A DNA stretch of 64,000 nt from Giardia intestinalis (lineage: Eukaryota). Shown in pieces: positions 1 through 29,684 of the stretch. The stretch is from assembly GCA_000002435.2 (NCBI GenBank), contig CM018791.1; one strand, 5' to 3'. The number at the start of each line of letters is the position of its first letter. The first letter of the stretch is position 1. The notes below the pieces were generated by a model that worked only from the letters and a program-made list of their open reading frames with translations, ran no database searches and was not told the origin of the DNA. Both the position numbers and the translations under genes were made by a program.

Positions 1-1
1 T

Positions 2-6000: not shown

Positions 6001-9000
6001 CCTGGCCCAGAAGGAGGGCATTGTGATACGGGGCCCGATACGCAACGCAGCCATCAACGCTTCTCAATGCTTCTCTACAGGAATATTTTATGAAGCTTGT
6101 ACTTTTGGATATCTAGCTTATCAATACTTTGGCCTTTTTGTCCTTGATCAGGATGAAAAAGACAACAAGCAGCCAAATGTGGATCTCGGTAAGTCATCTA
6201 GAAAGTGTGGTAATAACATAGCTGCAGAAACTCGCCGCTACAATTCGTCGCTGGACCGGATTAAGCTTCTAGGGTCTGACGAGCCAGTTATTTATTCACG
6301 CGTCAGTGCTGATTATTCGCCTCTTAATTCTGTGTACTTGAAGCAAAACTATCCGAGCTTTCTGGATAAGTCACACTTTCTATCCTTGTGCTACCATGCC
6401 GATTTCACTCTTGTGGGCGACAAACGCGGGAAGCTTCTCTTTCTTGAAAAGAAGCTTACCATTAAGGTGCCGCGTAAGCTCTTTGAGCTGGACTCACAGC
6501 TGCAGTATGACCTTTTAGGCCTCCAGGGACCGCTTAGTCACACGACTGAGCAGCGGCCTGCTGCCCCGACTTGCATGGCTTTAAAAAGGCTCACAATTAT
6601 TCCTGATATCAATCTGCACATCTTCACAATTCTCTGTGCTGTCCTTCAGAATTATGTGACGTTTGACTCTCTCGCATCCCATCTGTTCGATCTGGACGCA
6701 ATTCATCAGCTTGTGTCACTGCAGTGGCGGGTGTATCTTCTGATGAGCAGATGCATTTTTATTATCTCATATGTCAGGGCCCACGCAAATAAGCTTTTTT
6801 ACTATGTCGATATGCAGACCATTTGTCTGCAAGCTAGAGGCTTGCCCGTTCTAGTGCCAGCTGTGCACACTAGAGCAGTGACCCACAAATTCTTAACGTT
6901 ACTATACAAGACACAAACCCTGCTCAGTACAGCCCAATCCAATGGAGCGACGATGAGCAATATCGCCTCTCGAAAGGTACTCAGAGACACCATCTTTGCG
7001 CAGATAAAGGACCTTATTGAGTTTGAGGGCGAAATAGTCGCCGCAAACATGCCATTTCTACAGCATTCGGGGACCCTCCGAGACAGTGCTAATTTTCCAG
7101 ATAGCTACATGCTATCGCGTCAATTTCTTGTCAGCTCCTTTATTGAATCAATCATATATGATAACTTTTACTCTCCTGTCATATGCTCTGCAGATAAGCT
7201 CACAGAATGCAAGGGAGCCGTTGTTTGTTCGCTCCCCGCAAGAGTCATAACTGCATGCAGCACTGTTCTATCCAACTTCGGATTTCACAGGATGCAGTTT
7301 GTGATTTACAAGATTGTTTCCCTGACGAATAGTCGTTCATTCTACATTTTCGCTGGCGTTCTTTTCGGTATGGATTTGCATGAGGCCTCTGGGCGCCAGC
7401 AGGAATATCTTCGCTTTTGCATGCCAATCTTACTGGATAGGCTTCCACATTGTTTCACCATATTGACATACTCTATGCTGCAAACGACCATTTCTGCGTC
7501 TCTCTCCTGGTATGTGCAATACTACTCGGACATACTTGCCAATGACGCACTCAATTGCGACATAGCATTGTGCATTCTTCGGAGCATACCTTTGGCCACT
7601 GGAGTTCTGGCCATTCTCAGGCTTTTCCACGTCCTGGTCTCCGATTCAACTAAGCCGGGTGTCAATAGTTTGGAGAAGCTGAAAACTTTGAGGTCCGCTC
7701 TCGCAACTCTTACGTATGTCTTAAGCATCCTTCTTCGGTATCAGATTATCACTGTTCCCTCTACATACATGAGCCTTGTGCATCGCTCTGTTTGCATTAG
7801 CATTGATAAGTACCTTGATCCATCCACTAGCGTTTGCTGTCACACCCATTTCACTATAGACTTTGAGGCACTTGAGGAGCAGTTTCCATATAACCACCAG
7901 CGCCATGACATGCCGATAACCAAGGCGGTTACCTTTGAGCAGCATGCACCCACTGAGGACTCGTACACGATACCGTGTTTCGATATGCTCCACGGCTCCC
8001 TGTCCAAAGACTTCAAACGAGAGGCCCAGAAAGATTATATGGCTGCGCTTTTGCACTACAATAAGCACCACATAAAGCACGCAACTATTCTGGGACCATG
8101 CACAGTGCTTCCATTCAGCTACCTATACATTAAAGATACTTCTCCCCTCGAAGTGCAGATATCTTCTATTTTGCAGGAAACTTTCACTAGCGTTCGATAT
8201 AGGCTCTTTAGAGACATCCTTATTTCGCTTTCCAATACCTTATCTGATATAATTGAGGACTGTGTAGAGACTCCGCCAGTGCTAACTCTGCCACCTAGCG
8301 AGAAACAGATCCAACCACCTGACACTGCGTCTCCAACAGTTAATCCTTATGTATCACACGGCTTTGTCACGAGCATCTTTGTGTCTGGTGGTGATGAGTC
8401 TCTTTTTCGGCTTCTTGATGATTTTAATATTTTTGCTTTTCAATTGCTTGGAGACTACTTACACACGTACAACCGTGACTTTATCACTAGTATGCGCTTC
8501 TTCCAAACCCGTGCTTCATTTTTGGGAACTCAACAGGCGTTCACACCCATGCGTGTATACTCTGGGGTAACGCCTGTCTGTGCCTATAAAGGCCACGTTT
8601 TTCTGGATGCTTCCTTTCCAGACGGCATGTTTGCTGAGTTTTCAACACTACCAATCTACTCCGAAATATTGGACAAGCTTTTATTTTACAAGTTATTGTT
8701 TATTGTTTCTCCTATCAATGATGGCCCAGCGTGTAACTCACCTCTCAAGTCCTTTTTCAGCGCTTATGTACCACTTATTACTGGGCATCCTGTGGTATTC
8801 GACCAGCCATGCTTGGTAGATGAGTTCTCCATCGAATCAATGACAGATAAAGAGGCTACGTACTTTAGGTCGCTCCTATGCATGTTGGTGCTCGGTGCTA
8901 TCATAGTAATCACAAGTGAGGTTGCTACGAGACATAACTGGGCTACCTATATGCGCCTGCACGAAGAAAGGGTTCGGCAGGACCTTCCAGGCAGCCTAGT

Positions 9001-12000
9001 CTTCATTCTTCCTGGCCTGGTAAAAACATATCATGAACACAATATAGAGGAACCTATGTACGTGCTCGCCGAGAAGGCGCTTAGCATTTTAGCCCTTTAC
9101 GGGTTGGGTCAGGAGTCCAACCACTTAATTCGGTATCGAGACGGTTTTGTCGGCACAGACAAAGTTCAGCAATATGTGCATGACACAGATCTCTCTATCA
9201 AAATAGAACGGCTGGCTGCAAAGTTCTCTCAGCTGTCTGTTGGGAGTCAGAGCTTGTCAAACGCCATGCTCAGATCAGTTTTCTCTAACACACCTAACGT
9301 GTTGTCTGCAGCCCCTCTACCTTACTTACTGCGTAATTACTTGTTGCTTATTGCTGGCACTTTAGACGATTCTGAGGCTCGTATGGTTTTGACAGCCGTG
9401 TTTGTATCCACCTTTGGCACTTCTCTGCTTGACAAAGATGAGTCAGGGCAAGATGCGATGGCCTTCCTCACTGAGTTGACAGAGCGATATGCAGCTTCGA
9501 GTTATTACTTTTTGGACTCTGACATGAAAGAAGTACCTGCTTCTGCAAATCCACCCATGACCTATACTGTACCGTTTGCTCTAATGTTTTCCTATGCATT
9601 TTCAAGCTTGCAATATATTAGAGCCTCGCACACTGAGCTCCGATTCTTCTCGGAACCGGCATGTCTAACAGAATCAGAGAAGCGGCTTAATCAGGAGTTT
9701 CATCTGAGCACTTCTAATATGAGACTCTGCGGACTTCTTTCCGAGTTCTATCTACAGTTCTTTGGCAGAGATATTCTAGCAACTTTCCCCTTTTCGACTA
9801 CAGGCTTTTATTTTCTTTTCAATTTAGTTTACATTATTCTATTAATACTAACCCAATCTGTTTCTATTGGACCAATTGGTCTTCATGTTATAGACTTACC
9901 TCTTTGCAACACTCTTTATGGAATGGTTACTGCTGCGATTAGATACCTCGTCTCGGATATAATAATCATGGAATTAAGGTTTCAGAACCAGTGTAGGTTT
10001 GCTAGCAAGCGCCTCAACATTGCCGATCCGGTTGAGGGCGAGGAGTCTAGCATCTCCCATCCATCATTCGTGGAGGTAACCGATGTGTCTCAAATTACAG
10101 ATGTAGCGACAGGAAGGGTAACATATAGGCCTTACACAATATACTTTATGGCCTTAAAAGTGATTAATCCCACTCAAGATACAACAATGCTGTATGAAAT
10201 TTTGCTGTCAGCTCCACGACCCTCAACGACTGCCATTGTCATCATGTCACCATGTCTACGGCTATTGCAGTCCTTCACAGGGTATCACCTTCACTCTCAG
10301 CATTCTCTGCTCAATCCCAAACTTCTCCTCCAATATCAGACCCGCGAAATAAGATACTATCATACATTCAAGCTGTCTTCAATCAGTACTTCGGAGAGCA
10401 CAGACGTCTCCTATTCGCAATTCGAGGATCTGATCACGAGCTTTTCCATAACACAGTTGCAGCGGTTAATGCAGATGAAGGCGATGCGCTTCTTTATTCA
10501 GCTCTCCCCGCTCGTGCTTGCGTTCTGTGCTGACGCCTGTCTTCTAACCGAGCCTCGAGATTACTACGCTGCATACTGTAATTTTGTCTATCTCTGCTCT
10601 AAGTATTGTATTATTACCGTTGTACCAGTGATTCAAAATGGGTTTGAAACAGCAAGCCTTTATGGTCGCTGGGAGACATCCGATCCTTGCTCAAATTCGA
10701 TATCAGATCTTGAACGGCTTCTTGGCTCTAGAATGAAGGGAAAGGAGCAGGCTACACCGCAGGCTACCGTATATGAAGCCCAGACATCCACTAAAGACTT
10801 TGAGCAGCTTGCTTCTTCGATAGTCGGAAGTGCCGTCACAACCTTCCCTGGAGCGATGTCTACATGTGACAGTGCCATAGACAAATGTATGGCAACATCG
10901 TTCATGCACCACACTGCGCAGGGCTCTGTCACTGAGCAGGGACACGCCGACATCAAAAGGCCCAAAGAGAACAACGTCTTCGAGCTCTTCAACATTTCTC
11001 AGAACAAGCTCCTATGTACAATGCCCATCCCACATGATTCAGTTAGGCAGTGTCTTATATTTTCTCAGCTAGAAATAAGATGCAACCCTGCCTTCTTTAC
11101 ATGCTTCACTTACTGCAATCAGAACTACTCTGAGTTAGTGGCAAAGCTGGCGCTTATCATCTTTGGACTTGCATTCTCCGCTTGCAAGCTTAAGACTATA
11201 GTTCCAGCGGGATCTAATTCAGAGGTATTCAGACGGATGTCTGCGTTCTTAGCCTCGTCCCTGAACATTGATGACCTGTATAGCGACTCACAAGATGTTT
11301 TGTTCGACTTTCACGAGCAGGCCTATAAACAGTGCAGAGAAGCATTGCTTATGGATGGGCCTCAAACTGCATATTCCGTCTTCCTCTCGCGCTACTTCCT
11401 TAGCACAAATGACGAGGAATCACTCACCGACACAAACGAGGCATATAGCACGGCTTATAATGAAACTCACGGAGCCATTTCAGTAGACAGGTATGTCTAT
11501 GTCCGTATTCTTAACAGCATGCTTCCAACGGCACAGACCATCGCTGCAAAAGGTGATGCGTTCCTTTACAGCTTGCTTCTTCCTTCGTTTTCAATGGAAC
11601 CCATGACCTATGAGGGGCTTCGATTGGTTGAGGAGACTATTTCTCGGTTTTCGGACGGAGATTTCGACACTCTTCTCACACTGCTCAATTTTAGCACAGT
11701 GTATCTACACTTCACCCCAGCGCTCTACCCCAAACGGTATATCCTGCACCAAGGCACAACTAAGCGTCCATCTTCAACACTATACAGTCCTGTTGGAGTG
11801 CAAGAAGATCGTCCTGGTCCGTTCAATGAAATTGTGGATGTGGGATATCTGACTGCATATCCTATAAGTAGCTATGATGCTGAGTTAAGGATGCTAGCCT
11901 TATCCATCGTTGCAGCTATGTTTTGCAAGATACCTGTTGTTCTTTTCAGTGTCTTCTCACCAATATTTAACCAATCCGCGTTGCGTGCCGCCACTGCGCT

Positions 12001-15000
12001 ATTTGAAGAGGACACGTCTGTTCTCATACAGGATGATAAGTATAGAGAAAATATGCAACTCCAAACATCAGCAGACGAGCATATAAAATTTGGCACCTTT
12101 TCATATAACACGTATCTAATTCATAGTGTTTGCACTGATGCTGACCTGATCCAGCTTCTCGCTCGCCTACGGTCCATGTGCCAGTTTGTTTCATGTAACT
12201 CCCAGACCTATCTGGTTTCGCCATGTAGACTCATAGTCCTCATCAGAGCACATGCTTCTTTTCTATATTACCCAACCCTCCTCACACTACTTGGTCAGAA
12301 AGTTCAAATGATCGATAACACTGGAGTCATGCAACTAGTTACTCTGCGCAATATCCTCTTCTTGGTTGATGTTGCTCACGGGCCTCCAAAGGATATGTTA
12401 AGGATTTACCAGGTCTCACACCTATACACAGTTCGCACAGATGTGTCACTTCCCAGAACGCGGCGTGATAGACTCTGCACACAAGGAAAGCATTATGGGC
12501 ACTATCTCCTGGCAAAGATCTTTGGGTTCCGTGCTGTCAGTCGGCAGCTGGAGAACTTTCTCCTTGACCGAAACTTTATGTACACAGAGCGTATTTCTGC
12601 TTCGATAAGCACAATTTGGCTTATGGAACAATATTATGGTGTGTCACGAAGCAACGACCACACACTTAACGATACTATTTCTGCCATAATCTACAATTCA
12701 ATAGAACAAGCCGCCACTCAATATCATGAACAATATCCAGAAATTTATAGTGCACTCTATGGTGCCACGACTAAACAGAGGTTGATGTTAAAATTAGCTG
12801 ATGCGCCAGCTGCTTCCAGTACGCTAGAAGCGCTTACTTGCAGACAGCTTCTCACGCACACACCTGGTCAGGGCGTGCTCCTCAAGCAATTGATTGATGC
12901 CTTCAACATAAACCTCTTGAAGATCCTGATTAATCGAAGTCTTTATTCCCATTTCATGAACGAGTACGCTGAGCGAGTTGGCGGTCGAAAGAACCGAAAA
13001 AGTCGGCAACACACGACCGCCAGACAAGCTTCTGCAATCTCTAGAAAATCGGGTGCATCCCGTAGTTGCTGTGGCTCTCGGGCGTCATCGTTGACTGTTC
13101 TGGAAGAAACTATTGAAGAAGGAACTTTCTTCACACCAACAATCGATCTAAGTTACTATCAATCTGTGAAATCTAAGCGGTTAGAGGATAAGTCTGATGG
13201 ACCAAGCAGTAAAAACAGTGACTCGTTTGATACCACCTCCACATCGGCAGCTGCAATTTCACCTAGAGATCAGAGGGCCTCTGACATCAAATCATCTCAG
13301 GTTCCATCTCTTAGTGTTAAGTGGCTCAAGCCACCTATGGTGCAGCAGAACCCTGAGGTAGATGAGCACACAGAGAGCGCAGTAAAGCTGCCTGCTGTTG
13401 TATCGTCCCTTCTTAATAAGGACGTTGGTACCAAATACTTAGCCAAACTGAGTAGCCTCACAGGGCAAGACTATTTCGGAGTCCACACAATGGAGCTAAG
13501 GAACATTTTGGCAGAGGCTCACCTTTCTCCCATGCACATACCGACCACCCTGTTTGTCCCTTCAGGGCTTCTTAGCTACGCTGATTTTATCCTTCTAGCT
13601 AAGTCTTTACCTGGTGTTCTTGATGCTCTCCCGATAGACAGTCGTGTTCACCCAGTAGACAAAGACTCCATTTTATTGGTCGATATAGCTGCTGCTTGCG
13701 GATTAACAGATAGGGCACTTCCACCAGTACTCCAAACAATGAGCGTTACCGATAGATTTCTCACGGCCCTAAGGGCAGCTACGTGTGCGGCGATGGGTAT
13801 GCCTCCATCTGCGGCATATCCTCGAATCTTTGAACGCTTCAAGAAGCAAGCATTTTCGGGCATAGGATCCAGTTTGGAATCTCCGCTTTACCTACCTAGT
13901 GGACGCTTATCAGATACGACTATCATGCCGCAGCACATTCTGTCTACACACCCTCTCCTGGCTATACCGCGATGGCACTTTCACATAAACATCCAGACAC
14001 AAACCCTTATTCAGTATAAAACATCCATGCGAACAAGGACCGAATTTCACCCCGAATACGTCCCATATAACAAATATCCCCATCAATTTAATACCGTTAT
14101 TTTGGCAATCCCTCTCAGCCTTGCAGTGAGTTGCAATCTCCTCACTATGGTTGCTAACTTCCTTTATCCGGGGTCGGGAGAAAACAGCTGGATAAACAGG
14201 GAAGATCAAAGTGATTTTCTATCCGACTTCAGCTCCATTTCTAAACTCGGATTGGTCACCACAAGAACATATTTATGTTTTGTGAGCTGTACCATGCAAG
14301 TGATTATATTCGACAACTACTGTTTGCAAGCTGCTGTGCGCAAGGACATTCTTGCCATACTCCCACCTCATTTGGACGTAGTGCACTTTCATGCAGGCTT
14401 AAGCATGCACAAAGATATTGCTTCCATAACACAAAGTCCGTTGATGCAGCACAGGCTGTCAATTCCCATCCTGGCTTTGCCACCAACAGCCACTATAACA
14501 ACCCAGCAGAAAACGGTGGAGATATCGGAACAGTTGGCTGAAATGCGTGTATACATTGTAGCATATTATCTATATGACACGCTGGTGACACAGTTTTCAA
14601 GTTTCTCCATTCCATTCAGCAATAGCGTCGAATCTTCGGGTGAACTGGACACCGAACACGCCAACATGGATGTCAATCAAAGGACTCTGACAGCCTACTC
14701 TGCTCAGCGTAGCACCAAAGACTCAACATTGCACTCGGACGAGTCTTCAAATTACGTGGACTCGGAGATCAGAAGCCTGCGTTTACCTTCACTCTTGTCC
14801 TGTCCATCCTCTGCGAGGTCCAAGCGCTCTGTACACAATGATTTTCAAGATAAGTATAAGCACGCTGCTACTGTGTCTGGAATCCACGCTAGATCGATCA
14901 AATCTATTTCTAAGTTTATCCCATATTCAAACATTAACGATTTTATCCTGATAGTACGCCATGTATACCGAAACTTGAGAAGCTACTATGCTTCTAAGTT

Positions 15001-18000
15001 GCATGACATATCTCTCTTTCAGCAGCAATCTGTCAATTTAACAAAGCTAGCAAAGCATGGAAGCATACAAACACAGGAGACATTAACAAGAACTGCGGAA
15101 AATATCGCGCAATTTGCAGCAACTATTGTCCCAGAAGAAGACTTAGATGAGGAGAAATACAAGGAGTCAACAAAGGCACTCCACGAAGCAGAGAAAAGGC
15201 TTGCAACAATTACGCAAGAACTTACTGATGCTGAAGCGAAGGTGAAGACTCAAAAAGAGAAGCTGAAGAATAGCATAGAGGGAAGTTGCGCTGCTGTCAT
15301 GTACTTTGGAGACTCTAAGCTTGCCAGCTATGTGAAGGCGTTGCTGGCAGACCCGGCCAAATACCGCAACTTTGCTGAATTGCTACATAGAATCCCGGTC
15401 ATTTCTTCTGCAGTGGAGACTGTCAGTATTACTCCATGTGCTGCCTTACCCATTGCTGACTTTTGGAACATTGTTGCAGCTGAGGTTTTCAGCTCATGTG
15501 AGCGCCTCTATTCCCTCTTGGTTGGCTTCGACCAAGAAAGGGATGTGCTGGACCCCATAACCACGATAGATAGCTCTGCATTTAACGGCATTGAGACGAT
15601 CGTCTTCACTTGGTATATGGAAACCATAGAATACAGACGCTTTAAGGACGAATGTGTTGCTCAGTTCAAGCTGGAAGAGCTACGGAATAACCACGTTAAC
15701 CAGCAACACATCGTCTCAACCCTTGCAGCAGAAAATAGATTGCTTCAACAGACCTGCCAAAATACAGATAAAGCACGCAACATCAGCAGTTCTCAGTTGG
15801 ATCTTCTAGAAGCTCAGCTGTGCGACCTTAAGGAGTTGTTCCAAATAGAGAAGGATACCATAGGTATGGTTGTTAAGCACATTCCATCTATGGTCACTGA
15901 GGAGCGGCGGATGCGACAGATGCACAATCTCAGTTATGTTCACGGTGTCATTGTCGCTGCAACCGTGTATTTCGGAATTGGCTTAACCAGCATCTGCATT
16001 GATATTTTATCTAAAGCGAGTGGAACTTGCTCTTCAGAAGAGTGCTGTGCATTTTGTAGCATTCTCGATCTACCCCTCTGTTCGTGCTGCAATTGCTGTC
16101 TATGTTTTTGCGATTGCAAGTATGTGATGTCAGACACGGGTGCTACATTTCTGGTCAAAGCAGATGTTTTTAGTGAGCGTTCCATCTGTCGCCACATGAA
16201 ACGGAAAGACCAAGTTGTATCTCAGATGTTCCTTCTGCTGCGTAGCGAGTTCTCTCGCCAGCGTCTTTTGAAGTACAAGCTGCAGACAGACCAATTTCGC
16301 GTTCTGGAATTTGCGAGTCTCCTTATTCTCCACAAGGTCTTCAAGCGCCCGATCTTTGCTAGTAAGTATGCAATCCGTGATCTACCGCTTCTTGCAGATT
16401 GCATGGGTGCCTTAGATCCGTTTCTTTCCGTCCATACAGTCAGGGTGGCCCAGAATCTTTCTGCGTTTTGCTCTGCATTCCGAAAGGCTCTCCTAGACGT
16501 GCATACAAGAGTTATAGTCTTTGAGATAGCAGACACATGCCCTGCAATCCTGGATATTCTTGTCGCCTTCACGGTAGTTTATCCCTCTAAGGTTGAGACT
16601 GTGAATGAGGACACAACTTATAGCATACAAACTTTCTCCGTAAAGACTCCACGGCCCTTATCTCAGTATCGCTTCATAGTGACATTCGATATTGACGGTG
16701 CCAATCCTTTGGTGTATTGCATTGAGCCTGTAATTGTCAATCCATCTATTTTGCAAATGGATGTGTTAGAATTTCCATGGTATGCCTTGTTACAGAATGC
16801 TAGTATCTCTGCTGGCACCCTTTCTATGCACCGACCTTTTAGCTCCAAGGACGCTGAGGCCTCTATTCTTCTGCATAAGGATACAATACTTCAGCAGATT
16901 ATTTGTCACTACATTAATGGATACCACGACCGAGTTTTGGAGTATAGAACTGCTATTGTGGAGCTTGAAAGTGTAGTGGAGAGACAGCTACAGGTGTGCA
17001 TTGAGCAGTTGCATGAAGTGGAGAGTACCAGCTATACAGCAAAGGCATCAGTAGTCTATACGTGCTACAGGACATACCTTGACCAGGTGGACACACTATC
17101 TGCACTGTCCGATAAAAACAAGGCTATTCTCACAGAGCGGGCAAAGATGGAGAACGACGAACAGAGCAATCTCAATGTTGCCACCAGAATTATTATGGCC
17201 ATGAGCAACTATCTGCTCCGCTTGGCCCTGAGCTACCCTGCTGTACTTTATCCTCTGATATGTATACAATCCAAACCGTTCGCACATGACACAGATTATG
17301 TAGATTGCTCCCTTTTATTTTTACTCGAGATTGCTGATAACTTGTATAGAGCACTTCCACTATCAATCTTTCTCCCTGCCCTCATAATGGTTATAATAGT
17401 TTCTGAAATTACTCGGGGAACATTAACTCTGGATGACTATCAGCTCTTTAGCGCTGTTATGCTATCTGTAGGCAAGATACCCACTATCAACAGGGAAAAT
17501 ATTGATGTCGCCTCTCCATTCGGTCCCTACTATGCCGTTCAGTTTGATTCTTCTGGAAAGATTGTGCTTACATCAAAGGAGGCCTACTGCCTGGCTATGC
17601 TCCGAAAAGCTCATCCAAAAGTAGATTTTTCCATATTCACCACACCACTGGTGGGATCAGGAGAGGAGCCATTGAGTAGTGCACACACTACAAGGAACAA
17701 TCTCATGCTATACATCTTACGACAATACTCCGAAAAGAGCCCCAAACACATACACAATTTTCTTAGGACACTGGGAGAGTCCTTCTATTGCAAAATCATG
17801 GGTCTAGTATGTTATGGAACCGCCGGAGTGCAGACTACCACCAGTTCTAGACTAGCTTGTGCATTCAAGATTAAGCTTCCTGGGCCATCTATTGGACTAA
17901 TAACGAGAGTTGCTCAATCTGCCTCACCGTCCAGGGTCGTGCTTCTGCTCACTGCCAACACCGTACAGACTGCATATGCGCTATGGGCAACAGGCTTGTT

Positions 18001-19198
18001 TACTATGTCAGCTTCTGTGCTAGATGCAAGTACCCCCCAGGGGGCAGGATTGATTCTGTACCCATGTGTCCCGATACATGCTTTATCACGGCTTACAAAG
18101 GGATCTGTTGGAGTAGCTGATATTAGTTTGGGAATAACGACAATCTCGGACATATGTTGTCTGCTATCGCAATTGTCCGCGTTAAGCACAGCGCATCAAG
18201 CAGATAACCTATTAGTATGGTCTGATCGTCCGTTGGGGCTTCGTGCGCTGGTGGCCGCCATCACCGTGCCTCTGAGAATGCGCAAGAGGAGTTCATGGCT
18301 CTTGTCTCCATTGACACAGGTAGTGTGTACGGTTCATACCGACCAAGATCGCTTGATGGAGAGGCTTATAGTTGCTTCTATAGCAATATGCATGCGCTAC
18401 CCCCTTCTATTTAATAAGCTGTCGTTTTTCTTCAACCGTTCTGAAGCTATTCTCTCTTCAAACCAGTGGTATTTTCAATTAGTTCGAGCACGCTGCAATC
18501 ACGTGGTTACAAACATGAAGCAAATACAAAAACTCTGTATTAATGAAACAAACACACTAGAATGCATTGTGAGGTTTGCGCATGGGTTCTCATCAATTAT
18601 AGAAAAGGCAAGCCTGCATTCTTTCGTCTATGCTTTTGACAAGCTGACCCTAGGGCTACATGATGATGCTTATAGGCAACCCCTTGCCTCTCTCTTTACT
18701 TTCATGACCTTGCTACTGTTGCAGTTAAGCCCGAATAGTGATGAAGATGGTTTTGTTTCTGCTTCTGAAATGGAGCAATCAGTGACGTGTACTGGGCAAA
18801 GCCTTTCTGCCCCGATTCTGGATATGGCAATATTAAGCTCTAACGATGCTCTGATTAGTGATTCTGTTGGTGGAACAACCTCCGATGCCTACTCTTCTCG
18901 AGACGACTTTGCCACTTACTCTGATAGAATAATTCGATGTATGCTAACATTCACTACCCTTCCAGATGCGCGACTACTTACATCCTCAGTCCATCAGTTG
19001 CGCCAATCCCCTGTTCAAGCATCAACCCTGGCACATTCTCTCCTGGAGGAACTAGTTGCTTCATCACAACAAGATCAGCAGACTTCTCCAGAGAAACGTC
19101 TAGTTACACCTGTGCAGGCTCAAAACTGCGGTGTATACCTCTTACAAGACGATTGCGTGGTAGCTCCTCTGAATGAGAAAAACGCTGCCGATGCATAG
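2..19198 (+). CDS. Giant hypothetical protein, paralogue A (5'-partial; more than 6,390 codons inside the window)
   Basis: The track gives ORF 26..19198, but its first codon is TTG and the same frame is open back to nt 2 with no stop. The gene therefore starts upstream of the window. An uninterrupted reading frame of about 19 kb cannot occur by chance at ~50% GC. It has internal coiled-coil stretches and one predicted TM helix followed by a poly-Cys motif (nt ~15938-16125). I saw no P-loop or AAA motifs, so dynein and midasin are not supported. It is collinear with, and similar to, the ORF at 58080..64000. Confidence 0.8.
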   Translation, partial: QFEITLKPLAAPKEQDTLCTYTPIQQLPLTPSRNKPTRTIDLVSLLGITTHTELINVFLECIDHFTLKDRFAMAVRYLSSEILHRKVQNHQYLSIFTTSIIAALLELRLPHTSRASYTIDCVTDYREAQIRLDKVRFKCNADRLQALQNLAHEKELLYKKLCLTFQTKNLTTSSAVELCSIGIKSAQPILNHIRTSKLTLHLESLDPPAFNFQQTMADAVMDYLANAQTTDLQIQLIQEASINTSSPIHWCHTYLASFLWNTSKYYLTAQNTSIVNYMAQTAADRRLMMERGIAALSNISYLSADRAMFLLFRQLTATIEDYIGYLTLTPDLLLVTGIPFYPKVSPDILGSIVFTEDSEQREKRLVTENGVSLDPDQKVVMFDGYSLKKRLGYRFFPEVQMAANNTAHGHSVPLTNIINDTPARSLFIRIEKGINFMQKLDFYLTNSFILLFEILIPYIQETLLSNYDQKMQRSLEKMIKMEKINSKRQKLPDETIEKLAIQAQSSLKHGYVELEKQIEVYIYRLFNKVFEDTVFPLWLGLIHSLLHSIDVPEKCDRYALHSGTSAMSEEVASIQQHHEHCSADATTLDALTKNMKGSTGSGIDESTLRATDLCTERTASFLQMPESVELDSDSAPSSVLVSGMNVDADNLLLSHVSAMRGCNLSSSLQSGPLVLTKLFTPEIANFFLQLQEKFANIKQKYQQVSSILFTTPYTRPIFESLDLDLNYFQADMAQNSLDTAKESIEHILNVLSTLVIHVIFETNSYGLISNIAFDPSSDSIYSGLLCFIFDLVDFYSATPTLVNVLLNRRVNAQVDIVDLIADSAGMGVKRPHVRGGREHAVSEAIQGPTYLYDNEPALDNDQLVSRSVIGMNTTLLRPLVSPDTKDMSANSYLDVAKDVVDSFVIENWNIFKRESVYSEYIKMFFDLDITSCTQSYQLHSSQPPCASKNPKKAPVHAQNASAIDPFETADLKIPHAITKRKRQLSRVTSRLRNDPPASGLKLMSVAKLALTNMSIYLKSLQNDFSTFYHANLLALRDLFNEAYLFPREVYTGSKTMLSLYSLFRSKLKALRKNHTKQINGRLAKELGLSTDVKDDVESRKIPIEDMVASAEVVVSETGAVSHPSIDSSHFYLDETSCRDYFLPIHHPIASYLQGDMMDKFLFTTEPAEHSSRKYEEELRKSVAANRTGACHARNLIFDELLLFTGYLRQPAVVTALCQFYIPGDKPPELLSKHIIDITNTSSIITRILSNIYGLSESYYAVTALPPVCFYGTIKIDYSNYLATVARQAHELYVLYLNRLDDYCRLIHECGVTCIEYITKNLMNTHFDSAASLGAVYFIFKNFATFYPKWRDYYAWFNDVSVCLGNMIIDGRRAALLNEKLLYYRTQGSLMLMKTFKSMENRSQSISQCYQKLISQLTLIDNWVLSTQDALFQRIREYIRLNTQAIALCDEAPAKFAQQYETFTRNFVFPRAVRNLHDKGDLLDITAVLKSIDSATCLPFLSSLSDCLRRREPSILQLFHRDTDASGIPIFRSVDFPAAFTECEDIAHHLILLCEALIRTRKDALALNMYPYNDKTLFPTDKAILDAITEDRNLSAIDAVIFYDKDVDTAKTRTARRDYFLKQLLDPGESLKLSSSTVDAILHPSTQQGPVLTRLRNLLPLLFLINKLVALYFDFLSNFEQWMNCTIGRLSLSDVKNFVVQVVITATIILETLRDSVPISELARTLLQFITKKRSQLQLFFILKSSLYKINFIQSPNAARNVCLSSFEAMEVVTNRLLLLSDLEPLRTNELGQLLGIIQANIDEFLCIDPRDLHVVDFYVRDLLKYNRSKYSDETKVKIFLEIVSNHECSIMRSYRIGLHRIRAERFQYIQSSLIQRALANKENRVNPDERLEFPCHFLVSRTGGFVLETTVLQPQVLEVVSKYASTSDQGTTQTAEKLPAASRKALYSFHSEELSGKLQDLTKVSMSDTLDASLEMYEEGRDTDSAKTVEPDEKLTMTAALAQKEGIVIRGPIRNAAINASQCFSTGIFYEACTFGYLAYQYFGLFVLDQDEKDNKQPNVDLGKSSRKCGNNIAAETRRYNSSLDRIKLLGSDEPVIYSRVSADYSPLNSVYLKQNYPSFLDKSHFLSLCYHADFTLVGDKRGKLLFLEKKLTIKVPRKLFELDSQLQYDLLGLQGPLSHTTEQRPAAPTCMALKRLTIIPDINLHIFTILCAVLQNYVTFDSLASHLFDLDAIHQLVSLQWRVYLLMSRCIFIISYVRAHANKLFYYVDMQTICLQARGLPVLVPAVHTRAVTHKFLTLLYKTQTLLSTAQSNGATMSNIASRKVLRDTIFAQIKDLIEFEGEIVAANMPFLQHSGTLRDSANFPDSYMLSRQFLVSSFIESIIYDNFYSPVICSADKLTECKGAVVCSLPARVITACSTVLSNFGFHRMQFVIYKIVSLTNSRSFYIFAGVLFGMDLHEASGRQQEYLRFCMPILLDRLPHCFTILTYSMLQTTISASLSWYVQYYSDILANDALNCDIALCILRSIPLATGVLAILRLFHVLVSDSTKPGVNSLEKLKTLRSALATLTYVLSILLRYQIITVPSTYMSLVHRSVCISIDKYLDPSTSVCCHTHFTIDFEALEEQFPYNHQRHDMPITKAVTFEQHAPTEDSYTIPCFDMLHGSLSKDFKREAQKDYMAALLHYNKHHIKHATILGPCTVLPFSYLYIKDTSPLEVQISSILQETFTSVRYRLFRDILISLSNTLSDIIEDCVETPPVLTLPPSEKQIQPPDTASPTVNPYVSHGFVTSIFVSGGDESLFRLLDDFNIFAFQLLGDYLHTYNRDFITSMRFFQTRASFLGTQQAFTPMRVYSGVTPVCAYKGHVFLDASFPDGMFAEFSTLPIYSEILDKLLFYKLLFIVSPINDGPACNSPLKSFFSAYVPLITGHPVVFDQPCLVDEFSIESMTDKEATYFRSLLCMLVLGAIIVITSEVATRHNWATYMRLHEERVRQDLPGSLVFILPGLVKTYHEHNIEEPMYVLAEKALSILALYGLGQESNHLIRYRDGFVGTDKVQQYVHDTDLSIKIERLAAKFSQLSVGSQSLSNAMLRSVFSNTPNVLSAAPLPYLLRNYLLLIAGTLDDSEARMVLTAVFVSTFGTSLLDKDESGQDAMAFLTELTERYAASSYYFLDSDMKEVPASANPPMTYTVPFALMFSYAFSSLQYIRASHTELRFFSEPACLTESEKRLNQEFHLSTSNMRLCGLLSEFYLQFFGRDILATFPFSTTGFYFLFNLVYIILLILTQSVSIGPIGLHVIDLPLCNTLYGMVTAAIRYLVSDIIIMELRFQNQCRFASKRLNIADPVEGEESSISHPSFVEVTDVSQITDVATGRVTYRPYTIYFMALKVINPTQDTTMLYEILLSAPRPSTTAIVIMSPCLRLLQSFTGYHLHSQHSLLNPKLLLQYQTREIRYYHTFKLSSISTSESTDVSYSQFEDLITSFSITQLQRLMQMKAMRFFIQLSPLVLAFCADACLLTEPRDYYAAYCNFVYLCSKYCIITVVPVIQNGFETASLYGRWETSDPCSNSISDLERLLGSRMKGKEQATPQATVYEAQTSTKDFEQLASSIVGSAVTTFPGAMSTCDSAIDKCMATSFMHHTAQGSVTEQGHADIKRPKENNVFELFNISQNKLLCTMPIPHDSVRQCLIFSQLEIRCNPAFFTCFTYCNQNYSELVAKLALIIFGLAFSACKLKTIVPAGSNSEVFRRMSAFLASSLNIDDLYSDSQDVLFDFHEQAYKQCREALLMDGPQTAYSVFLSRYFLSTNDEESLTDTNEAYSTAYNETHGAISVDRYVYVRILNSMLPTAQTIAAKGDAFLYSLLLPSFSMEPMTYEGLRLVEETISRFSDGDFDTLLTLLNFSTVYLHFTPALYPKRYILHQGTTKRPSSTLYSPVGVQEDRPGPFNEIVDVGYLTAYPISSYDAELRMLALSIVAAMFCKIPVVLFSVFSPIFNQSALRAATALFEEDTSVLIQDDKYRENMQLQTSADEHIKFGTFSYNTYLIHSVCTDADLIQLLARLRSMCQFVSCNSQTYLVSPCRLIVLIRAHASFLYYPTLLTLLGQKVQMIDNTGVMQLVTLRNILFLVDVAHGPPKDMLRIYQVSHLYTVRTDVSLPRTRRDRLCTQGKHYGHYLLAKIFGFRAVSRQLENFLLDRNFMYTERISASISTIWLMEQYYGVSRSNDHTLNDTISAIIYNSIEQAATQYHEQYPEIYSALYGATTKQRLMLKLADAPAASSTLEALTCRQLLTHTPGQGVLLKQLIDAFNINLLKILINRSLYSHFMNEYAERVGGRKNRKSRQHTTARQASAISRKSGASRSCCGSRASSLTVLEETIEEGTFFTPTIDLSYYQSVKSKRLEDKSDGPSSKNSDSFDTTSTSAAAISPRDQRASDIKSSQVPSLSVKWLKPPMVQQNPEVDEHTESAVKLPAVVSSLLNKDVGTKYLAKLSSLTGQDYFGVHTMELRNILAEAHLSPMHIPTTLFVPSGLLSYADFILLAKSLPGVLDALPIDSRVHPVDKDSILLVDIAAACGLTDRALPPVLQTMSVTDRFLTALRAATCAAMGMPPSAAYPRIFERFKKQAFSGIGSSLESPLYLPSGRLSDTTIMPQHILSTHPLLAIPRWHFHINIQTQTLIQYKTSMRTRTEFHPEYVPYNKYPHQFNTVILAIPLSLAVSCNLLTMVANFLYPGSGENSWINREDQSDFLSDFSSISKLGLVTTRTYLCFVSCTMQVIIFDNYCLQAAVRKDILAILPPHLDVVHFHAGLSMHKDIASITQSPLMQHRLSIPILALPPTATITTQQKTVEISEQLAEMRVYIVAYYLYDTLVTQFSSFSIPFSNSVESSGELDTEHANMDVNQRTLTAYSAQRSTKDSTLHSDESSNYVDSEIRSLRLPSLLSCPSSARSKRSVHNDFQDKYKHAATVSGIHARSIKSISKFIPYSNINDFILIVRHVYRNLRSYYASKLHDISLFQQQSVNLTKLAKHGSIQTQETLTRTAENIAQFAATIVPEEDLDEEKYKESTKALHEAEKRLATITQELTDAEAKVKTQKEKLKNSIEGSCAAVMYFGDSKLASYVKALLADPAKYRNFAELLHRIPVISSAVETVSITPCAALPIADFWNIVAAEVFSSCERLYSLLVGFDQERDVLDPITTIDSSAFNGIETIVFTWYMETIEYRRFKDECVAQFKLEELRNNHVNQQHIVSTLAAENRLLQQTCQNTDKARNISSSQLDLLEAQLCDLKELFQIEKDTIGMVVKHIPSMVTEERRMRQMHNLSYVHGVIVAATVYFGIGLTSICIDILSKASGTCSSEECCAFCSILDLPLCSCCNCCLCFCDCKYVMSDTGATFLVKADVFSERSICRHMKRKDQVVSQMFLLLRSEFSRQRLLKYKLQTDQFRVLEFASLLILHKVFKRPIFASKYAIRDLPLLADCMGALDPFLSVHTVRVAQNLSAFCSAFRKALLDVHTRVIVFEIADTCPAILDILVAFTVVYPSKVETVNEDTTYSIQTFSVKTPRPLSQYRFIVTFDIDGANPLVYCIEPVIVNPSILQMDVLEFPWYALLQNASISAGTLSMHRPFSSKDAEASILLHKDTILQQIICHYINGYHDRVLEYRTAIVELESVVERQLQVCIEQLHEVESTSYTAKASVVYTCYRTYLDQVDTLSALSDKNKAILTERAKMENDEQSNLNVATRIIMAMSNYLLRLALSYPAVLYPLICIQSKPFAHDTDYVDCSLLFLLEIADNLYRALPLSIFLPALIMVIIVSEITRGTLTLDDYQLFSAVMLSVGKIPTINRENIDVASPFGPYYAVQFDSSGKIVLTSKEAYCLAMLRKAHPKVDFSIFTTPLVGSGEEPLSSAHTTRNNLMLYILRQYSEKSPKHIHNFLRTLGESFYCKIMGLVCYGTAGVQTTTSSRLACAFKIKLPGPSIGLITRVAQSASPSRVVLLLTANTVQTAYALWATGLFTMSASVLDASTPQGAGLILYPCVPIHALSRLTKGSVGVADISLGITTISDICCLLSQLSALSTAHQADNLLVWSDRPLGLRALVAAITVPLRMRKRSSWLLSPLTQVVCTVHTDQDRLMERLIVASIAICMRYPLLFNKLSFFFNRSEAILSSNQWYFQLVRARCNHVVTNMKQIQKLCINETNTLECIVRFAHGFSSIIEKASLHSFVYAFDKLTLGLHDDAYRQPLASLFTFMTLLLLQLSPNSDEDGFVSASEMEQSVTCTGQSLSAPILDMAILSSNDALISDSVGGTTSDAYSSRDDFATYSDRIIRCMLTFTTLPDARLLTSSVHQLRQSPVQASTLAHSLLEELVASSQQDQQTSPEKRLVTPVQAQNCGVYLLQDDCVVAPLNEKNAADA

Positions 19199-19754
19199 TA
19201 TGCACGCGCTTCTCAGAGTCTTCGATAGTATAAGCGAAGGCGGGCCTTCTTTATACAGAGAGTTCATCGACGCCACATCGCGTCAATTCTCAGAGAGCAG
19301 CCTTCCTGGAAGCGGGTCCCCGATCGTCGGAGCACCTTCATCTGGCTCCCACGAGCCCTACCGAAAACCAGTAACCCCAACAACACCATCTATCGGTATA
19401 AACACGGAATCGTCCAGTCCGCCCAAATGGAACCCTCTTCTTAGATGTGTCGCACCTCTGAGATTGCCGCGTCCACCCAAGCCTTGGCACCGAGGAACGT
19501 GGAGCGGCATGTGTACCGGTGACACAGGAATCTTGGCTATAGACCTTTTCAGCAGTCCGCAGGAGGTGGATCCTAGCTCTCTTGCCTTTGTTGTCGCCTC
19601 AGAAATGGCGGTGTATGATACCGTCTGCCTACTGATCCACGTCAGAAACAAGGGGATCTGCCACTTCGTTCCGCGGGGATGCACCGTCGGCGTGTGCGCA
19701 TCGATGGAGGAGGCAGAGACATTTCTGCGCTGCCTCTTTGGGGCTGTTGAGTGA
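19191..19754 (+). CDS. Hypothetical small protein (start ambiguous: 19173, 19191 or 19200)
   Basis: Track ORF 19173..19754 (193 aa). Its first ATGs overlap the stop codon of the giant ORF (ATGCATAGTATG). The middle is Pro/Ser-rich and low-complexity. The C-terminal ~80 aa (ILAIDLFSS...VVASEMAVYDTVCLLIHVRNKG...) look like a small alpha/beta domain. I recognise no family. Confidence 0.3.
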   Translation: MHSMHALLRVFDSISEGGPSLYREFIDATSRQFSESSLPGSGSPIVGAPSSGSHEPYRKPVTPTTPSIGINTESSSPPKWNPLLRCVAPLRLPRPPKPWHRGTWSGMCTGDTGILAIDLFSSPQEVDPSSLAFVVASEMAVYDTVCLLIHVRNKGICHFVPRGCTVGVCASMEEAETFLRCLFGAVE

Positions 19755-19879
19755 AGGGTCAGACGAAAGGCGGTTTCTTCCTCACGTTGGGCTCAGCGGT
19801 AGCTGATTTATCTCTCTTCATCTACGAACCCCTTTTCTGTGAGCTGCAAAGTGAATTTAAAATACAATCTATTTTTAAA

Positions 19880-24528: not shown

Positions 24529-26949
24529 TCAGTTTTTCTTTCGGAAGACGAAAAACCAAACCAGCACACCCGCCACACCGCCGACGACGAGGACCACGCT
24601 GATGGCGATGCCAGAGATGGCACTAGACGAGAGGGCGGACTTTTTGGAGGTGCTGTCGTACTCCAGACATACGGGTGTGGCTGCACCCTCTGGAACCACG
24701 CAGAGGCTGCACTTGGAGATCGCCTTGTGACACGCCTTGCACGTGCTCTCGGAGAAGTAGTACCCGGCCAGGCAGTCAAAGCATACCTCCCCATGGGGGC
24801 AGGTGGCGCAGCCCTTGGAGCACGCCTTGCACGCCCCCTTCTCCAGGTAGAACCCGCTGTTGCAGGCGTTGCAGACCCCACTGCTACACATTGCGCAGTT
24901 CGTCGGGCATGTAAGGAGCGTTCCGTTGTACGTTATCCCGTACCCGGTCACGGTGCTGTCACACCAGCCGTTACTCTCCTTCGTGCAGACAGTCTTCCCG
25001 GGGAGGAGCGTGGAGGTGTAGCACCCCCCGTTGAGGCTGAAGGAGTTTGAGCTGCAAGCAGCACATCTACCGGCAGCGACATTCGCGCACGCGATGCCAG
25101 CCGCCCGCAAGCTGGAGAAGGTGCACGCCCCGTTGTTGGGGTACTCCGTGCTCTTGGCGCAGCGCGAGCAGTAGCTGGTCCCGCCCACCGTGAGCCCGCA
25201 CTCTGCACAGCTGCTGTCCTGCACGCACTGCGGGACGCACGATCCCTTGGCACCGTCGCTGTACTGCAGCCGCTTCCTGGCAGGGCAGGAGGTGCAGTCA
25301 CCGGACGCCGGTCCGCTGCACGTGGCACACTCAGAGCTGCACGGCTTGCATCCTCCCGAGCCCTCGACGTAGAACCCGTCCCTGCAGGTCTTGCACTTGG
25401 ATTCCGACTCGCAGACTGCGCAGTTGCCGAGCGTGCACGCCACGCACCTCGAGACGCCCCCCACGGTGGCCTTGTAGTACCCGGCGGAGCCCAGGCAGTC
25501 CTTCACGCACAGACCGTGGGGGTCGAGGCTGTTGCCACCGGCACACTTTGTGCATACGTTTCTGTCCTCGCACGTGTCGCAGTTGGGGTCCTTGCACTTG
25601 GTCGCCACGCACTGACTGCCGGAGAGTGTGTAGCCATACTTGCACTTCTTACAGCTCGACTCGTCACACTCAGCGCAGTTCTCCACCGCGCACCCGACGC
25701 ACTTCCCGTCCTTCAGATATGACCCGTCATCGCACGCGCAGCTGTGGACCGAGGATGAGGACCCCTTTATGCCCTTCTGCCCCTTGGGACAGCTGGCCAG
25801 GCAGCTCCTCTTATCCAGGCTCAGGTAGAGGTCGCGGCACTCCAGACACTGAAGACTACTGTCCTTCATCTCACACCTTTGGCATCCCTCTATTCCCCCG
25901 TTGGCTGAGTCCCCGCAGCGCCAGCATCCGTTGTTCTTGGTGAACACTTCATTGATTGAACTGTTGCATGCAGTACACACATTGTTTTGCACTGTCTGAC
26001 AAATCTGAGACCCTACTTGACCTGGAGCATAACTAAATAAGTAGCATCCACCATAAAACAAGAAGTATTGCCTGTTGCTATCATTCTTACAAGATGTGCA
26101 TTTTCCCGTTTCAGAATCTTTCGTACAAACATTATCAAATCCGCTAATTGACCCACAGAGGCCATTCTGAGGCACTTCTGATGAATTGGCACATTGTGTG
26201 CACAACGATTGTCCCTGTATATCTATAGTATTTCTTGGTAAACAGATACTGTTGCCAATTACACTATCTGTGGTATAACACCCAAACTGACTCCAGACGT
26301 AACCCCTAGGACAAAAGTAACAATAGCCGAGCTCGAGTCCCTTAACAGACCTACATCGAAAATCAAAAGGGCACATAAATCGTTCTGAGCATTCGCTACA
26401 GCTGGGTATAGTGTTCCCTGGCAACCTATGTTGGTTACAGTACTGACACCTATATACACCACTACTCCCGCCAAAGCCTACTATATCTCCGCAGTAGATA
26501 CAGCGTTCAGGAGAGGTCGCATTAGGGTTGGTAAAAGTTATTGGAGTATAGTACGTACTACCCTTTCCGCACTCTTGACAAATCCCATTTTCTGCACGAT
26601 CGCAAATACTTGCTTTCCATCTGCCAGACAATTCATAGCAGCCACCGTAAAATAAGAAGTAACCATTTTTACATCCTGTGCACCATCCACCTTTCGGCGA
26701 TTTAACACAACCGGCTTTATTAACTTTTTCGTCTGTAGTAGCAACACATGTGCCGTTGATGGGAACATAATCCTGGCTACACTCTGTGCAAAAAAAAGCA
26801 CCTAAGTCCACTAGGCATCTATCCTGAAGACACTGTGAGATCTTGCCTTCACAAGAATACCCAAAGCCATTGTAGTATACAAACGTTTCCTCAGAGAAAG
26901 ACCCTGCCAGAAAACAAGTCAGAATCACGATCAGCGAAGCCAAAGTCAT
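24529..26949 (-). CDS. High-cysteine membrane protein (HCMP; VSP-like Cys-rich type I membrane protein without the CRGKA tail)
   Basis: 806 aa starting with ATG. The N-terminus MTLASLIVILTCFLAGSFS looks like a signal peptide. The protein has dozens of CxxC/CxC motifs and GGCY motifs (LFYGGCYELSG, LFYGGCYLFSY). The C-terminus has a hydrophobic helix IAISVVLVVGGVAGVLVWFFVF followed by the short tail RKKN. An AT-rich stretch (aataaagaataatagcttc) lies just upstream of the ATG on the minus strand. Confidence 0.8.
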   Translation of the reverse strand: MTLASLIVILTCFLAGSFSEETFVYYNGFGYSCEGKISQCLQDRCLVDLGAFFCTECSQDYVPINGTCVATTDEKVNKAGCVKSPKGGWCTGCKNGYFLFYGGCYELSGRWKASICDRAENGICQECGKGSTYYTPITFTNPNATSPERCIYCGDIVGFGGSSGVYRCQYCNQHRLPGNTIPSCSECSERFMCPFDFRCRSVKGLELGYCYFCPRGYVWSQFGCYTTDSVIGNSICLPRNTIDIQGQSLCTQCANSSEVPQNGLCGSISGFDNVCTKDSETGKCTSCKNDSNRQYFLFYGGCYLFSYAPGQVGSQICQTVQNNVCTACNSSINEVFTKNNGCWRCGDSANGGIEGCQRCEMKDSSLQCLECRDLYLSLDKRSCLASCPKGQKGIKGSSSSVHSCACDDGSYLKDGKCVGCAVENCAECDESSCKKCKYGYTLSGSQCVATKCKDPNCDTCEDRNVCTKCAGGNSLDPHGLCVKDCLGSAGYYKATVGGVSRCVACTLGNCAVCESESKCKTCRDGFYVEGSGGCKPCSSECATCSGPASGDCTSCPARKRLQYSDGAKGSCVPQCVQDSSCAECGLTVGGTSYCSRCAKSTEYPNNGACTFSSLRAAGIACANVAAGRCAACSSNSFSLNGGCYTSTLLPGKTVCTKESNGWCDSTVTGYGITYNGTLLTCPTNCAMCSSGVCNACNSGFYLEKGACKACSKGCATCPHGEVCFDCLAGYYFSESTCKACHKAISKCSLCVVPEGAATPVCLEYDSTSKKSALSSSAISGIAISVVLVVGGVAGVLVWFFVFRKKN

Positions 26950-28529: not shown

Positions 28530-29684
28530 TCACGTGGCCAGATGCCCTTTACCCTGATCCTCGAGAGTGCCCTTAAGAGAGGCAGTCTCAGCAGACCTGG
28601 CGTCGAGGGCCGCCTCAAGAGTAGTAATCCTGTCCAGCTTGGTCTTGGCATCCTCCTCCAGAAGTGTAATCCTGGCGTTAGCACTGTTCAGAGTAGTCTC
28701 CAAGGCGCCGCACTTGTACCTCAGCATCACGCACTGACCCCCCAGCTCACTAACTGGGATGTCGAATGTAGCGAGCGTCTCGTGCAGCTCCCTGGCCGTC
28801 GGCCTCCTCTCTGGCTCCAGCACGAATATCCTCTCCAGAACATTCTGCATGAAGCCATCAGTGACATCGCTCAGGTCCGGCCTCCACCCATCGACGAAGA
28901 CCTCTGCTGGGACTTTACCTTCTAGGAAGTCCGGTTTCCTTAGAGTAGTAAGCTCGTAGAGGATGACCCCGAGGCTCCACACGTCGGAGGCGGGGCTGGC
29001 CTCGTTGCGAAGGAGCACCTCGGGGGCCACGTATGCCATTATTCCCATGAGAGTGCTCCCACTCCACAGGGCGTCCTTGCAGAGGCCGAAGTCGGCGATG
29101 ATGAAGCGCTCTCCGTCTGCGCTGACGAGGATGCTGGCAGGCCTGAGGTCGCGGTGGACGAGCCCCCTAGTACCTATCCCACTGAGGCCGTAGAGATAGG
29201 CGAGGGCGGCAGCGACCTGCCTCAGGACGGAGAGGATCACAGCGATAGGGATGAGAGTCTTCCTTCGTTTGTGCTCGGTGAGGAGGCGCTCGAGGGTCTT
29301 GTCGTGCCGGTCTATGACGACATAGATGAGACCTTCGTCCTCGACTACTTGGTGGTGCCTGAGGACCCCCGGATGGGAGAGGTCGAGAAGGGCGGTCAGC
29401 TCTAGTCTGATGGCATCTGCACTGTTCTTATCTAAGCCGTCGAGGAGGATCTCCTTCAGGGCAAGGCTCGGATATCCCTTGAGGGAGTAGACTACACCTG
29501 CGACGCTTTCATTAGGCACGCTATCCAGTCGCTCGTGGAGTTCCCTGAGGGCGAAGTGCAGGGGGCTGGACGCGCGACTGCCACCGCCGCCCACGAATTC
29601 CGTTTTTGGACGCCCGGGCGATCGATCGGACGGCCCGCGGAGAGGCCGCTCCTGCCGGCCCTGTGGCAGCGAGCGATGCCGCAC
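28530..29684 (-). CDS. NEK-like Ser/Thr protein kinase with a C-terminal coiled coil (possible pseudogene or non-canonical start)
   Basis: Kinase motifs are present: LALKEI (VAIK-like Lys), HRDLRPASIL, DFGLCKD, YVAPE, DVWSLGVILYEL. The C-terminal tail is heptad-rich. The Gly-loop is degenerate (VAGVVYSL). The ORF begins at GTG and has no in-frame ATG before the kinase domain; the first Met is in subdomain VII-VIII. Confidence 0.6.
   Translation of the reverse strand: MRHRSLPQGRQERPLRGPSDRSPGRPKTEFVGGGGSRASSPLHFALRELHERLDSVPNESVAGVVYSLKGYPSLALKEILLDGLDKNSADAIRLELTALLDLSHPGVLRHHQVVEDEGLIYVVIDRHDKTLERLLTEHKRRKTLIPIAVILSVLRQVAAALAYLYGLSGIGTRGLVHRDLRPASILVSADGERFIIADFGLCKDALWSGSTLMGIMAYVAPEVLLRNEASPASDVWSLGVILYELTTLRKPDFLEGKVPAEVFVDGWRPDLSDVTDGFMQNVLERIFVLEPERRPTARELHETLATFDIPVSELGGQCVMLRYKCGALETTLNSANARITLLEEDAKTKLDRITTLEAALDARSAETASLKGTLEDQGKGHLAT

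Follow-up and report, generated by a model that had tools for sequence, protein, structure and literature searches.

A conserved module of about 60 residues, consisting of a hydrophobic helix followed by two clusters of cysteines, lies deep inside a giant protein of Giardia intestinalis WB (here called A), which is encoded on a 64,000-nucleotide stretch of contig CM018791.1 (GenBank assembly GCA_000002435.2; this whole stretch is referred to below as the window). The cysteine motif is far from random, is under purifying selection and has a composition resembling that of a cysteine string such as the one in CSP-alpha. The helix and the two clusters may together form a single internal lipid-anchor module of the CSP type with both flanks in the cytosol, a tentative reading to which a probability of about 0.4 is given. 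The parts of the module and the reading frame that contains it are as follows.

2–19198 (+), giant open reading frame A; 5′ end cut by the window, frame open from window position 2, stop codon at 19196–19198.
15881–15922 (+), charged motif IPSMVTEERRMRQM, which terminates a coiled-coil-like stretch and lies shortly before the helix.
15938–16009 (+), hydrophobic helix VHGVIVAATVYFGIGLTSICIDIL with core GVIVAATVYFGIGLTSICI and a conserved cysteine at its C-terminal end.
16010–16042 (+), polar linker SKASGTCSSEE, whose one cysteine is kept only within G. intestinalis.
16043–16057 (+), cysteine cluster 1 (CCAFC), with the invariant core C-x-F-C after an acidic residue.
16058–16078 (+), hydrophobic spacer SILDLPL, 7 residues long in WB and 23 residues long (AATINNEITNGRIFQKKPSVYYV) in the distant relative P0069 (see below).
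16079–16117 (+), cysteine cluster 2 (CSCCNCCLCFCDC), with the invariant pattern C-x-CC-xx-C-x-C-x-C-x-C.

The module occupies exactly nucleotides 15938–16123 in the frame of the giant open reading frame, and the translation of positions 15800–16300 in this frame reads ...EERRMRQMHNLSY-VHGVIVAATVYFGIGLTSICIDIL-SKASG-TCSSEECCAFCSILDLPLCSCCNCCLCFCDCKY-VMSD.... The hydrophobic segment is therefore present as quoted in the initial annotation of this DNA, starting at nucleotide 15938. The same annotation placed the cysteine stretch immediately after the helix, which dropped the five residues SKASG; measured from the end of the hydrophobic core, the first CC pair (cluster 1) begins 14 residues on and the main cluster (cluster 2) 26 residues on. 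It also counted 14 cysteines in 33 residues, a figure to be corrected to 12 for the 33-residue string TCSSEECCAFCSILDLPLCSCCNCCLCFCDCKY, with one further cysteine at the end of the helix. The position given for the motif, around residue 5,300, is correct when counted from the start of the window; in the whole protein, the module corresponds to approximately residues 5,890–5,951, about 1,020 residues before the C-terminus, if A in WB has the same length as in DH, an isolate closely related to it. The A orthologue is a called gene of 6,975 amino acids in DH and of 6,960 amino acids in isolate P15, and, from the DH length, about 577 residues of A lie upstream of the window, leaving 6,398 of the approximately 6,975 codons visible.

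The density of cysteines in the string is exceptional for this protein. Cysteine makes up 2.2% of the whole visible part of A, whereas the string reaches 11 cysteines in 25 residues (44%), a density in the range of S-acylated cysteine-string anchors (about 40% or more over 10–25 residues), and the next-richest 33-residue window of A holds 5. At the background frequency of A, 33 residues would contain at least 12 cysteines with a binomial probability of about 1e-12, which becomes about 6e-9 when all windows are taken into account. The pattern of cluster 2 occurs once in A and once in P0069.

For a comparison across lineages, orthologous DNA was obtained via a conserved downstream neighbor of 577 amino acids from DH (assemblage A2), P15 (assemblage E) and two divergent Logan assemblies, for which the identities across the C-terminal 1,600 residues are 67% and 62%. 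Each of these orthologues carries both parts of the module, which is thus kept in five G. intestinalis lineages down to 62% identity. All 12 string cysteines are kept in three orthologues, and 11 of the 12 in the most divergent one, which has a single change of cysteine to tyrosine. Synonymous switches between TGT and TGC occur in 11 of the 13 cysteine codon columns, against a single non-synonymous change, which indicates selection on the residue and not on the DNA. Within G. intestinalis, the overall conservation of the module is moderate, at the 66th percentile of 63-residue windows.

An exhaustive HMMER search of 1.84 billion representatives yielded one further relative, P0069, a protein of 7,055 amino acids from a Logan assembly (E = 1.3e-13) that is collinear with A throughout, at about 22–23% identity. 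In its module, AVVIAAFLLFGSSTFSLVC precedes ERICMFC, which is separated from CPCCSSCYCLCNCC by a spacer that exceeds that of WB by 16 residues. In the resulting six-sequence alignment (alignment A2), the invariant residues include nine cysteines and, in the helix, H, AA, FG and S: the columns concerned are H214, A219, A220, F224, G225 and S230 in the helix, C249, F251 and C252 in cluster 1, and C260, C262, C263, C266, C268, C270 and C272 in cluster 2. The module consensus is thus H-x4-AA-x3-FG-x4-S ... E-x-C-x-F-C-(7 to 23)-C-x-CC-xx-C-x-C-x-C-x-C. Of all peptides in this alignment, the charged motif IPSMVTEERRMRQM upstream of the helix and one other are the most conserved. Between WB and P0069, 9 of the 13 module cysteines are kept, as compared with 1 of the 14 cysteines elsewhere in the same 700-residue block (hypergeometric one-sided p of about 0.001). 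As judged from these codon and residue patterns, the poly-cysteine motif is under purifying selection in all reachable orthologues, including one at 22% identity.

These results also bear on whether the motif might be an artefact, arising from a low-complexity insertion, faulty assembly or translation in the wrong frame. The initial annotation had named absence from orthologues as a sign of an insertion or low-complexity artefact; the motif is present in all of them, including P0069. An independent assembly from another sequencing run (L013) is identical to the window in sequence, no DNA tandem repeat was found at the motif, and no competing open reading frame longer than 85 amino acids overlaps the motif itself. 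Apart from its odd composition, nothing speaks for an artefact, and with the switching of cysteine codons described above this explanation is effectively refuted.

Homology searches of other kinds have to be read with caution. Word-indexed searches with the 900 amino acids around the motif and with alignment A2 returned no homologue, and a metagenome scan with the same alignment gave 600 pattern matches, none of which was confirmed. The homology tools missed even G. intestinalis A and its assemblage orthologues, although these are called genes and the neighboring proteins were found normally; that no further homologues turned up therefore counts for little.

The composition of the string between its cysteines is closer to that of a cysteine string than to that of a metallothionein. 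Among the non-cysteine residues, 57–60% are hydrophobic, with two aromatics. In the string of CSP-alpha, 50% are hydrophobic and two are aromatic, whereas in human MT2A and yeast CUP1 the hydrophobic share is 0–22%, aromatics are absent and about 30% of the residues are charged. In hmmscan searches against Pfam at E values up to 10, segments of 37 and 109 amino acids from WB matched no metallothionein, Sprouty, CYSTM, zinc-finger or Fe-S family, and the P0069 module gave only a chance-level match to Plasmod_dom_1 (E = 0.05).

The helix requires a more guarded description. On the Hessa biological scale, summed over 19 residues, the core GVIVAATVYFGIGLTSICI scores 0.67 kcal/mol in WB and ranks third in A, behind segments at window residues 3265 (-0.11) and 2957 (0.36); three more segments are close. 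As controls, a VSP-like protein encoded in the same window scores -1.35 for its C-terminal transmembrane (TM) segment and -0.06 for its signal peptide. Shuffles of the composition of A, which is rich in Leu, Ile, Val and Phe, contain on average 1.74 segments at or below 0.67, and at least one such segment in 84% of cases. On the Wimley-White octanol scale, the sum for the helix is favorable (about -4.1 kcal/mol), and 24 segments of A score better. The description of the helix as a lone TM helix thus does not hold: two other segments of A are more TM-like, and its hydrophobicity is reproduced by shuffling.

It is conservation in P0069, and not hydrophobicity alone, that singles out the helix. 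The aligned segment of P0069 scores -0.16, which is the best 19-residue segment among its 7,055 residues. By contrast, the counterparts of A segments 2520, 2957, 3265 and 4698 gain charges in P0069 and score 5.9–16.7, so that only one of the five other TM-like segments of A stays hydrophobic there. This is MLALSIVAAMFCKIPVVLF at 11891–11947 (+) (residues 3963–3981 of the window translation), which scores 1.36 in WB and 1.21 in P0069, where it reads VIATAVAISVFSNVCTCLF, and is invariant or nearly so in the assemblages. Segment 3963 may pair with the helix in a membrane, or may be a core helix that has been conserved. A multi-pass membrane protein was considered and rejected, given that four of the five other TM-like segments lose their hydrophobicity in P0069. 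The helix is best described as a conserved, borderline-TM hydrophobic segment with putative membrane insertion.

If the helix does cross a membrane, its topology creates a difficulty. The N-terminal side comprises about 5,890 residues that are cytosol-like, helical and low in cysteine. A helix that crossed the bilayer once would therefore leave the string, along with the C-terminal 1,040 residues, in a lumenal or exoplasmic position inaccessible to DHHC enzymes. The textbook arrangement of a TM helix plus juxtamembrane palmitoylation, which the initial annotation had suggested alongside metal binding, thus appears internally inconsistent for A: the motif itself is real, far beyond chance and conserved, but it is not strictly juxtamembrane, and a single-span topology would make its cysteines non-cytosolic. 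A bitopic protein with a cytosolic string would work only if segment 3963 were a partner TM segment. That arrangement is implausible: a Lys and a Pro interrupt segment 3963 in mid-helix, and the intervening lumenal loop, with its coiled coils, would be 1,330 residues long. The alternative to a partner segment would be that the helix does not span the bilayer.

A true single-span signal-anchor, with the N-terminal ~5,890 residues cytosolic, the C-terminal ~1,040 residues lumenal or extracellular, and the exoplasmic string held in disulfides or bound to metal instead of S-acylated, nevertheless has to be weighed, as does its variant in which segment 3963 is the partner and the string is cytosolic. 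The core has a length of 19–20 residues, its hydrophobicity is conserved at all positions without helical periodicity, and in WB lysine and arginine together number 3 before the helix and 1 after it, a bias that under the positive-inside rule points to a cytosolic N-terminal side; the retained hydrophobicity of MLALSIVAAMFCKIPVVLF in P0069 fits the variant. However, the flank bias is gone in P0069 (4 against 4), the Hessa sum is weaker than those of the control TM segment and signal peptide, and the C-terminal 1,040 residues (about 2% cysteine, helical and Leu-rich) are unlike Giardia surface proteins such as the VSP-like neighbor. With the objections to segment 3963 given above, a bitopic A in either form is judged improbable. 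The two clusters could instead form a metal-thiolate site (Zn, Cu(I) or Fe-S) in a soluble domain with a structural, redox or metal-buffering role, the helix being a buried core helix. The CxC, CC and CxxC spacings are typical of such sites, and the strict spacing of 7–9 invariant cysteines at 22% identity is what a coordination geometry would demand, whereas acylated strings usually tolerate positional drift. A buried helix would also be in keeping with the many equally hydrophobic helices of A that are clearly not conserved as TM-like, and the conserved small residues (AA, G, S) on one face suggest helix–helix packing. On the other hand, the Pfam searches gave no metal-binding family, the clusters contain no His partners, the hydrophobic and aromatic residues between the cysteines are unlike those of metallothioneins, and the spacer between the clusters ranges from 7 to 23 residues. 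Metal-thiolate coordination is accordingly a possible explanation, if on balance a rather unlikely one. The data do not fix the thiol chemistry, and the module might have another thiol role, as a redox-sensitive or disulfide oligomerization patch or as a protein–protein interface: cysteine strings can self-associate, and CSP-alpha multimerizes through its cysteine-string region (PMC3481330). Such a role is doubtful, given that dense free thiols seldom form stable disulfides in the reducing cytosol and that it offers no specific account of the adjacent conserved helix.

Under the preferred reading as an internal lipid anchor, the helix and the hydrophobic residues among the cysteines would give A a weak, reversible affinity for the cytosolic leaflet, in the manner of CSP-alpha, in which the hydrophobicity of a string of 14 cysteines in 24 residues allows transient membrane binding before DHHC-dependent palmitoylation (PMC3481330). 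The helix may lie in the plane of the membrane or be kinked at the invariant FG, and need not span the bilayer. Leaflet contact would bring up to 12–13 cysteines near a membrane-bound Giardia DHHC acyltransferase, and multiple S-acylation would then lock an otherwise cytosolic scaffold of about 7,000 residues (about 780 kDa) on the membrane, with both flanks remaining cytosolic. Nine DHHC proteins are present in Giardia, and S-acylated substrates are known there, among them the VSP tail (PMC4109852). Both flanks of the module contain about 2% cysteine and coiled coils and have no CXXC repeats of the VSP type, a composition that is suggestive of a cytosolic location.

Several points weigh against this reading. 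The helix is borderline in hydrophobicity, and a segment of this kind is to be expected by chance given the size and composition of A. The main cluster lies 26 residues from the helix in WB and about 43 residues from it in P0069, so that "juxtamembrane" applies only loosely; within about 10 residues of the TM end there are only the single cysteine at the helix end and C5342, and both clusters fall outside this range. A single-sequence AlphaFold model has a mean pLDDT of 39 and is uninformative, including the helix break that it places at FGIG. CxCxCxC spacing is also found in metal-thiolate proteins, and unacylated cysteine strings are able to bind metals or Fe-S clusters. The literature searched contained no Giardia palmitoyl-proteome and no experimental data on A.

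The window contains the start of a second gene of similar size.

57846–64000 (+), paralogue B; ATG at 57846, 3′ end cut by the window, called product of 6,973 amino acids.

B was identified as a paralogue of A in the initial annotation, and this is borne out by an identity of about 25% to the N-terminal 2,000 residues of A. The two genes lie on the same strand, 38 kb apart, and are nearly equal in length (6,975 and 6,973 amino acids); P0069 is nearer to A than to B. In B, the motif would be expected about 17.7 kb into the gene. A and B might both be giant cytosolic scaffolds of the Giardia lineage, each tethered to a membrane not by a terminal anchor but by a hairpin or cysteine-string module that lies within the chain and is S-acylated at multiple sites. 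This broader proposal is speculative and, at present, unlikely; if it were true, it would define a new architectural class of lipid-anchored membrane–cytoskeleton tether, in a cell whose peripheral endocytic compartments, ventral disc and cytoplasmic axonemes are unusual membrane systems.

A is an orphan protein that is predicted to be largely helical. Overlapping pieces of A searched against Pfam at E values up to 10 matched no family, with one chance-level match only, and when A, the isolated module and the profiles A2 and A3 were compared with PDB sequences, nothing came up but coiled-coil noise and a single chance match; neither A nor B has a Pfam or PDB relative. A cryptic dynein or AAA protein was considered for A and rejected, as there is no Walker A motif. 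Searches of the literature on the neighboring gene identifiers, on Giardia giant proteins and on a Giardia cysteine string returned nothing relevant, and a description of the module was not found there. In one Logan assembly (L012; SRR13990249_228, locus 1–8682), A is called as a product of 6,593 amino acids plus a separate product of 300 amino acids. This locus is out of register with the window by position, which implies an indel and thus either a true truncating variant or an assembly error.

The surroundings of A show further features. An open reading frame of 193 amino acids at 19173–19754 (+) overlaps the last 26 nucleotides of A; it has no Pfam match and is called as a gene of 187–193 amino acids in every assemblage looked at. 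The C/D-box snoRNA GlsR8 (RF02337) lies at 19757–19826 (-), as a full-length match (104 bits, E = 4e-24), in the short gap between two small open reading frames just downstream of A. A neighboring locus in G. intestinalis WB C6 is GL50803_0016543. Between 24000 and 30000, the GC content, about 46% in the background, rises to about 60% in two islands, which coincide with a gene for a VSP-like high-cysteine membrane protein (24529–26949, -) and with a protein kinase gene (28530–29684, -). Five large 21.1-type ankyrin-repeat genes on alternating strands, one of which is a NEK kinase, occupy 30384–49582, and this run is followed by an orphan open reading frame of 2,430 amino acids at 49736–57028 (-).

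The largest proteins of Giardia are unannotated orphans, and the conserved module provides a first handle on one of them. It is experimentally tractable, since tagged forms and Cys-to-Ser mutants are suited to assays of acylation, metal content and membrane binding. Acylation would make it far more heavily lipidated than any other site proposed in Giardia, and an example of a protein of about 780 kDa anchored by an internal cysteine string; if it binds metal instead, it would be an unusual hydrophobic thiolate cluster. The module overturns nothing that is known, and its value is that of a specific, testable lead.

Comparison with known systems places the module between several classes of cysteine-rich proteins. 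The Giardia VSPs and high-cysteine membrane proteins (HCMPs) share with A the organism, the richness in cysteine and, putatively for A, the membrane anchorage, but carry extracellular CXXC repeats, a C-terminal TM segment and a CRGKA-type tail. A VSP-like surface protein was considered for A and rejected, as A has no match to PF03302, whereas the open reading frame at 24529–26949 matches it at 1.5e-84. Metallothioneins and other metal-thiolate clusters resemble the module in CxC, CC and CxxC spacing and in strictly conserved cysteine positions; in contrast, A gives no profile match to them, has hydrophobic and aromatic residues and few Lys, Ser or Gly between its cysteines, and has its motif embedded in a giant protein beside a hydrophobic helix.

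Synaptotagmin-1 and the coronavirus spike endodomain have a similar layout, in which a hydrophobic helix is followed C-terminally by CC and CxC clusters; these TM-proximal clusters are multiply S-acylated. The clusters of those proteins are at the membrane boundary, whereas those of A are 14–26 residues away, and their cytosolic orientation follows from a signal peptide or from an N-terminus that is short and lumenal, whereas A has about 5,890 N-terminal residues, so that its cysteines would face away from the cytosol if the helix spanned the bilayer once. CSP-alpha shares with A an internal dense run of cysteines (14 in 24 residues in CSP, 11 in 25 here), Leu, Phe and Tyr among the cysteines, a hydrophobic stretch alongside, and cytosolic flanks, which for A are suggested by composition. 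Unlike CSP (DNAJC5), A has no J-domain (no DnaJ Pfam match at E values up to 10) and no sequence homology to it; CSP is a chaperone of about 200 amino acids and A an orphan of about 7,000, the cysteines of A are in two clusters with a variable spacer and a separate 20-residue helix 14 residues upstream, and its acylation is putative. By sequence the module is a member of no such family; in predicted function it is most like the cysteine string of CSP-alpha, and in layout it is like the clusters of synaptotagmin-1 and the coronavirus spike.

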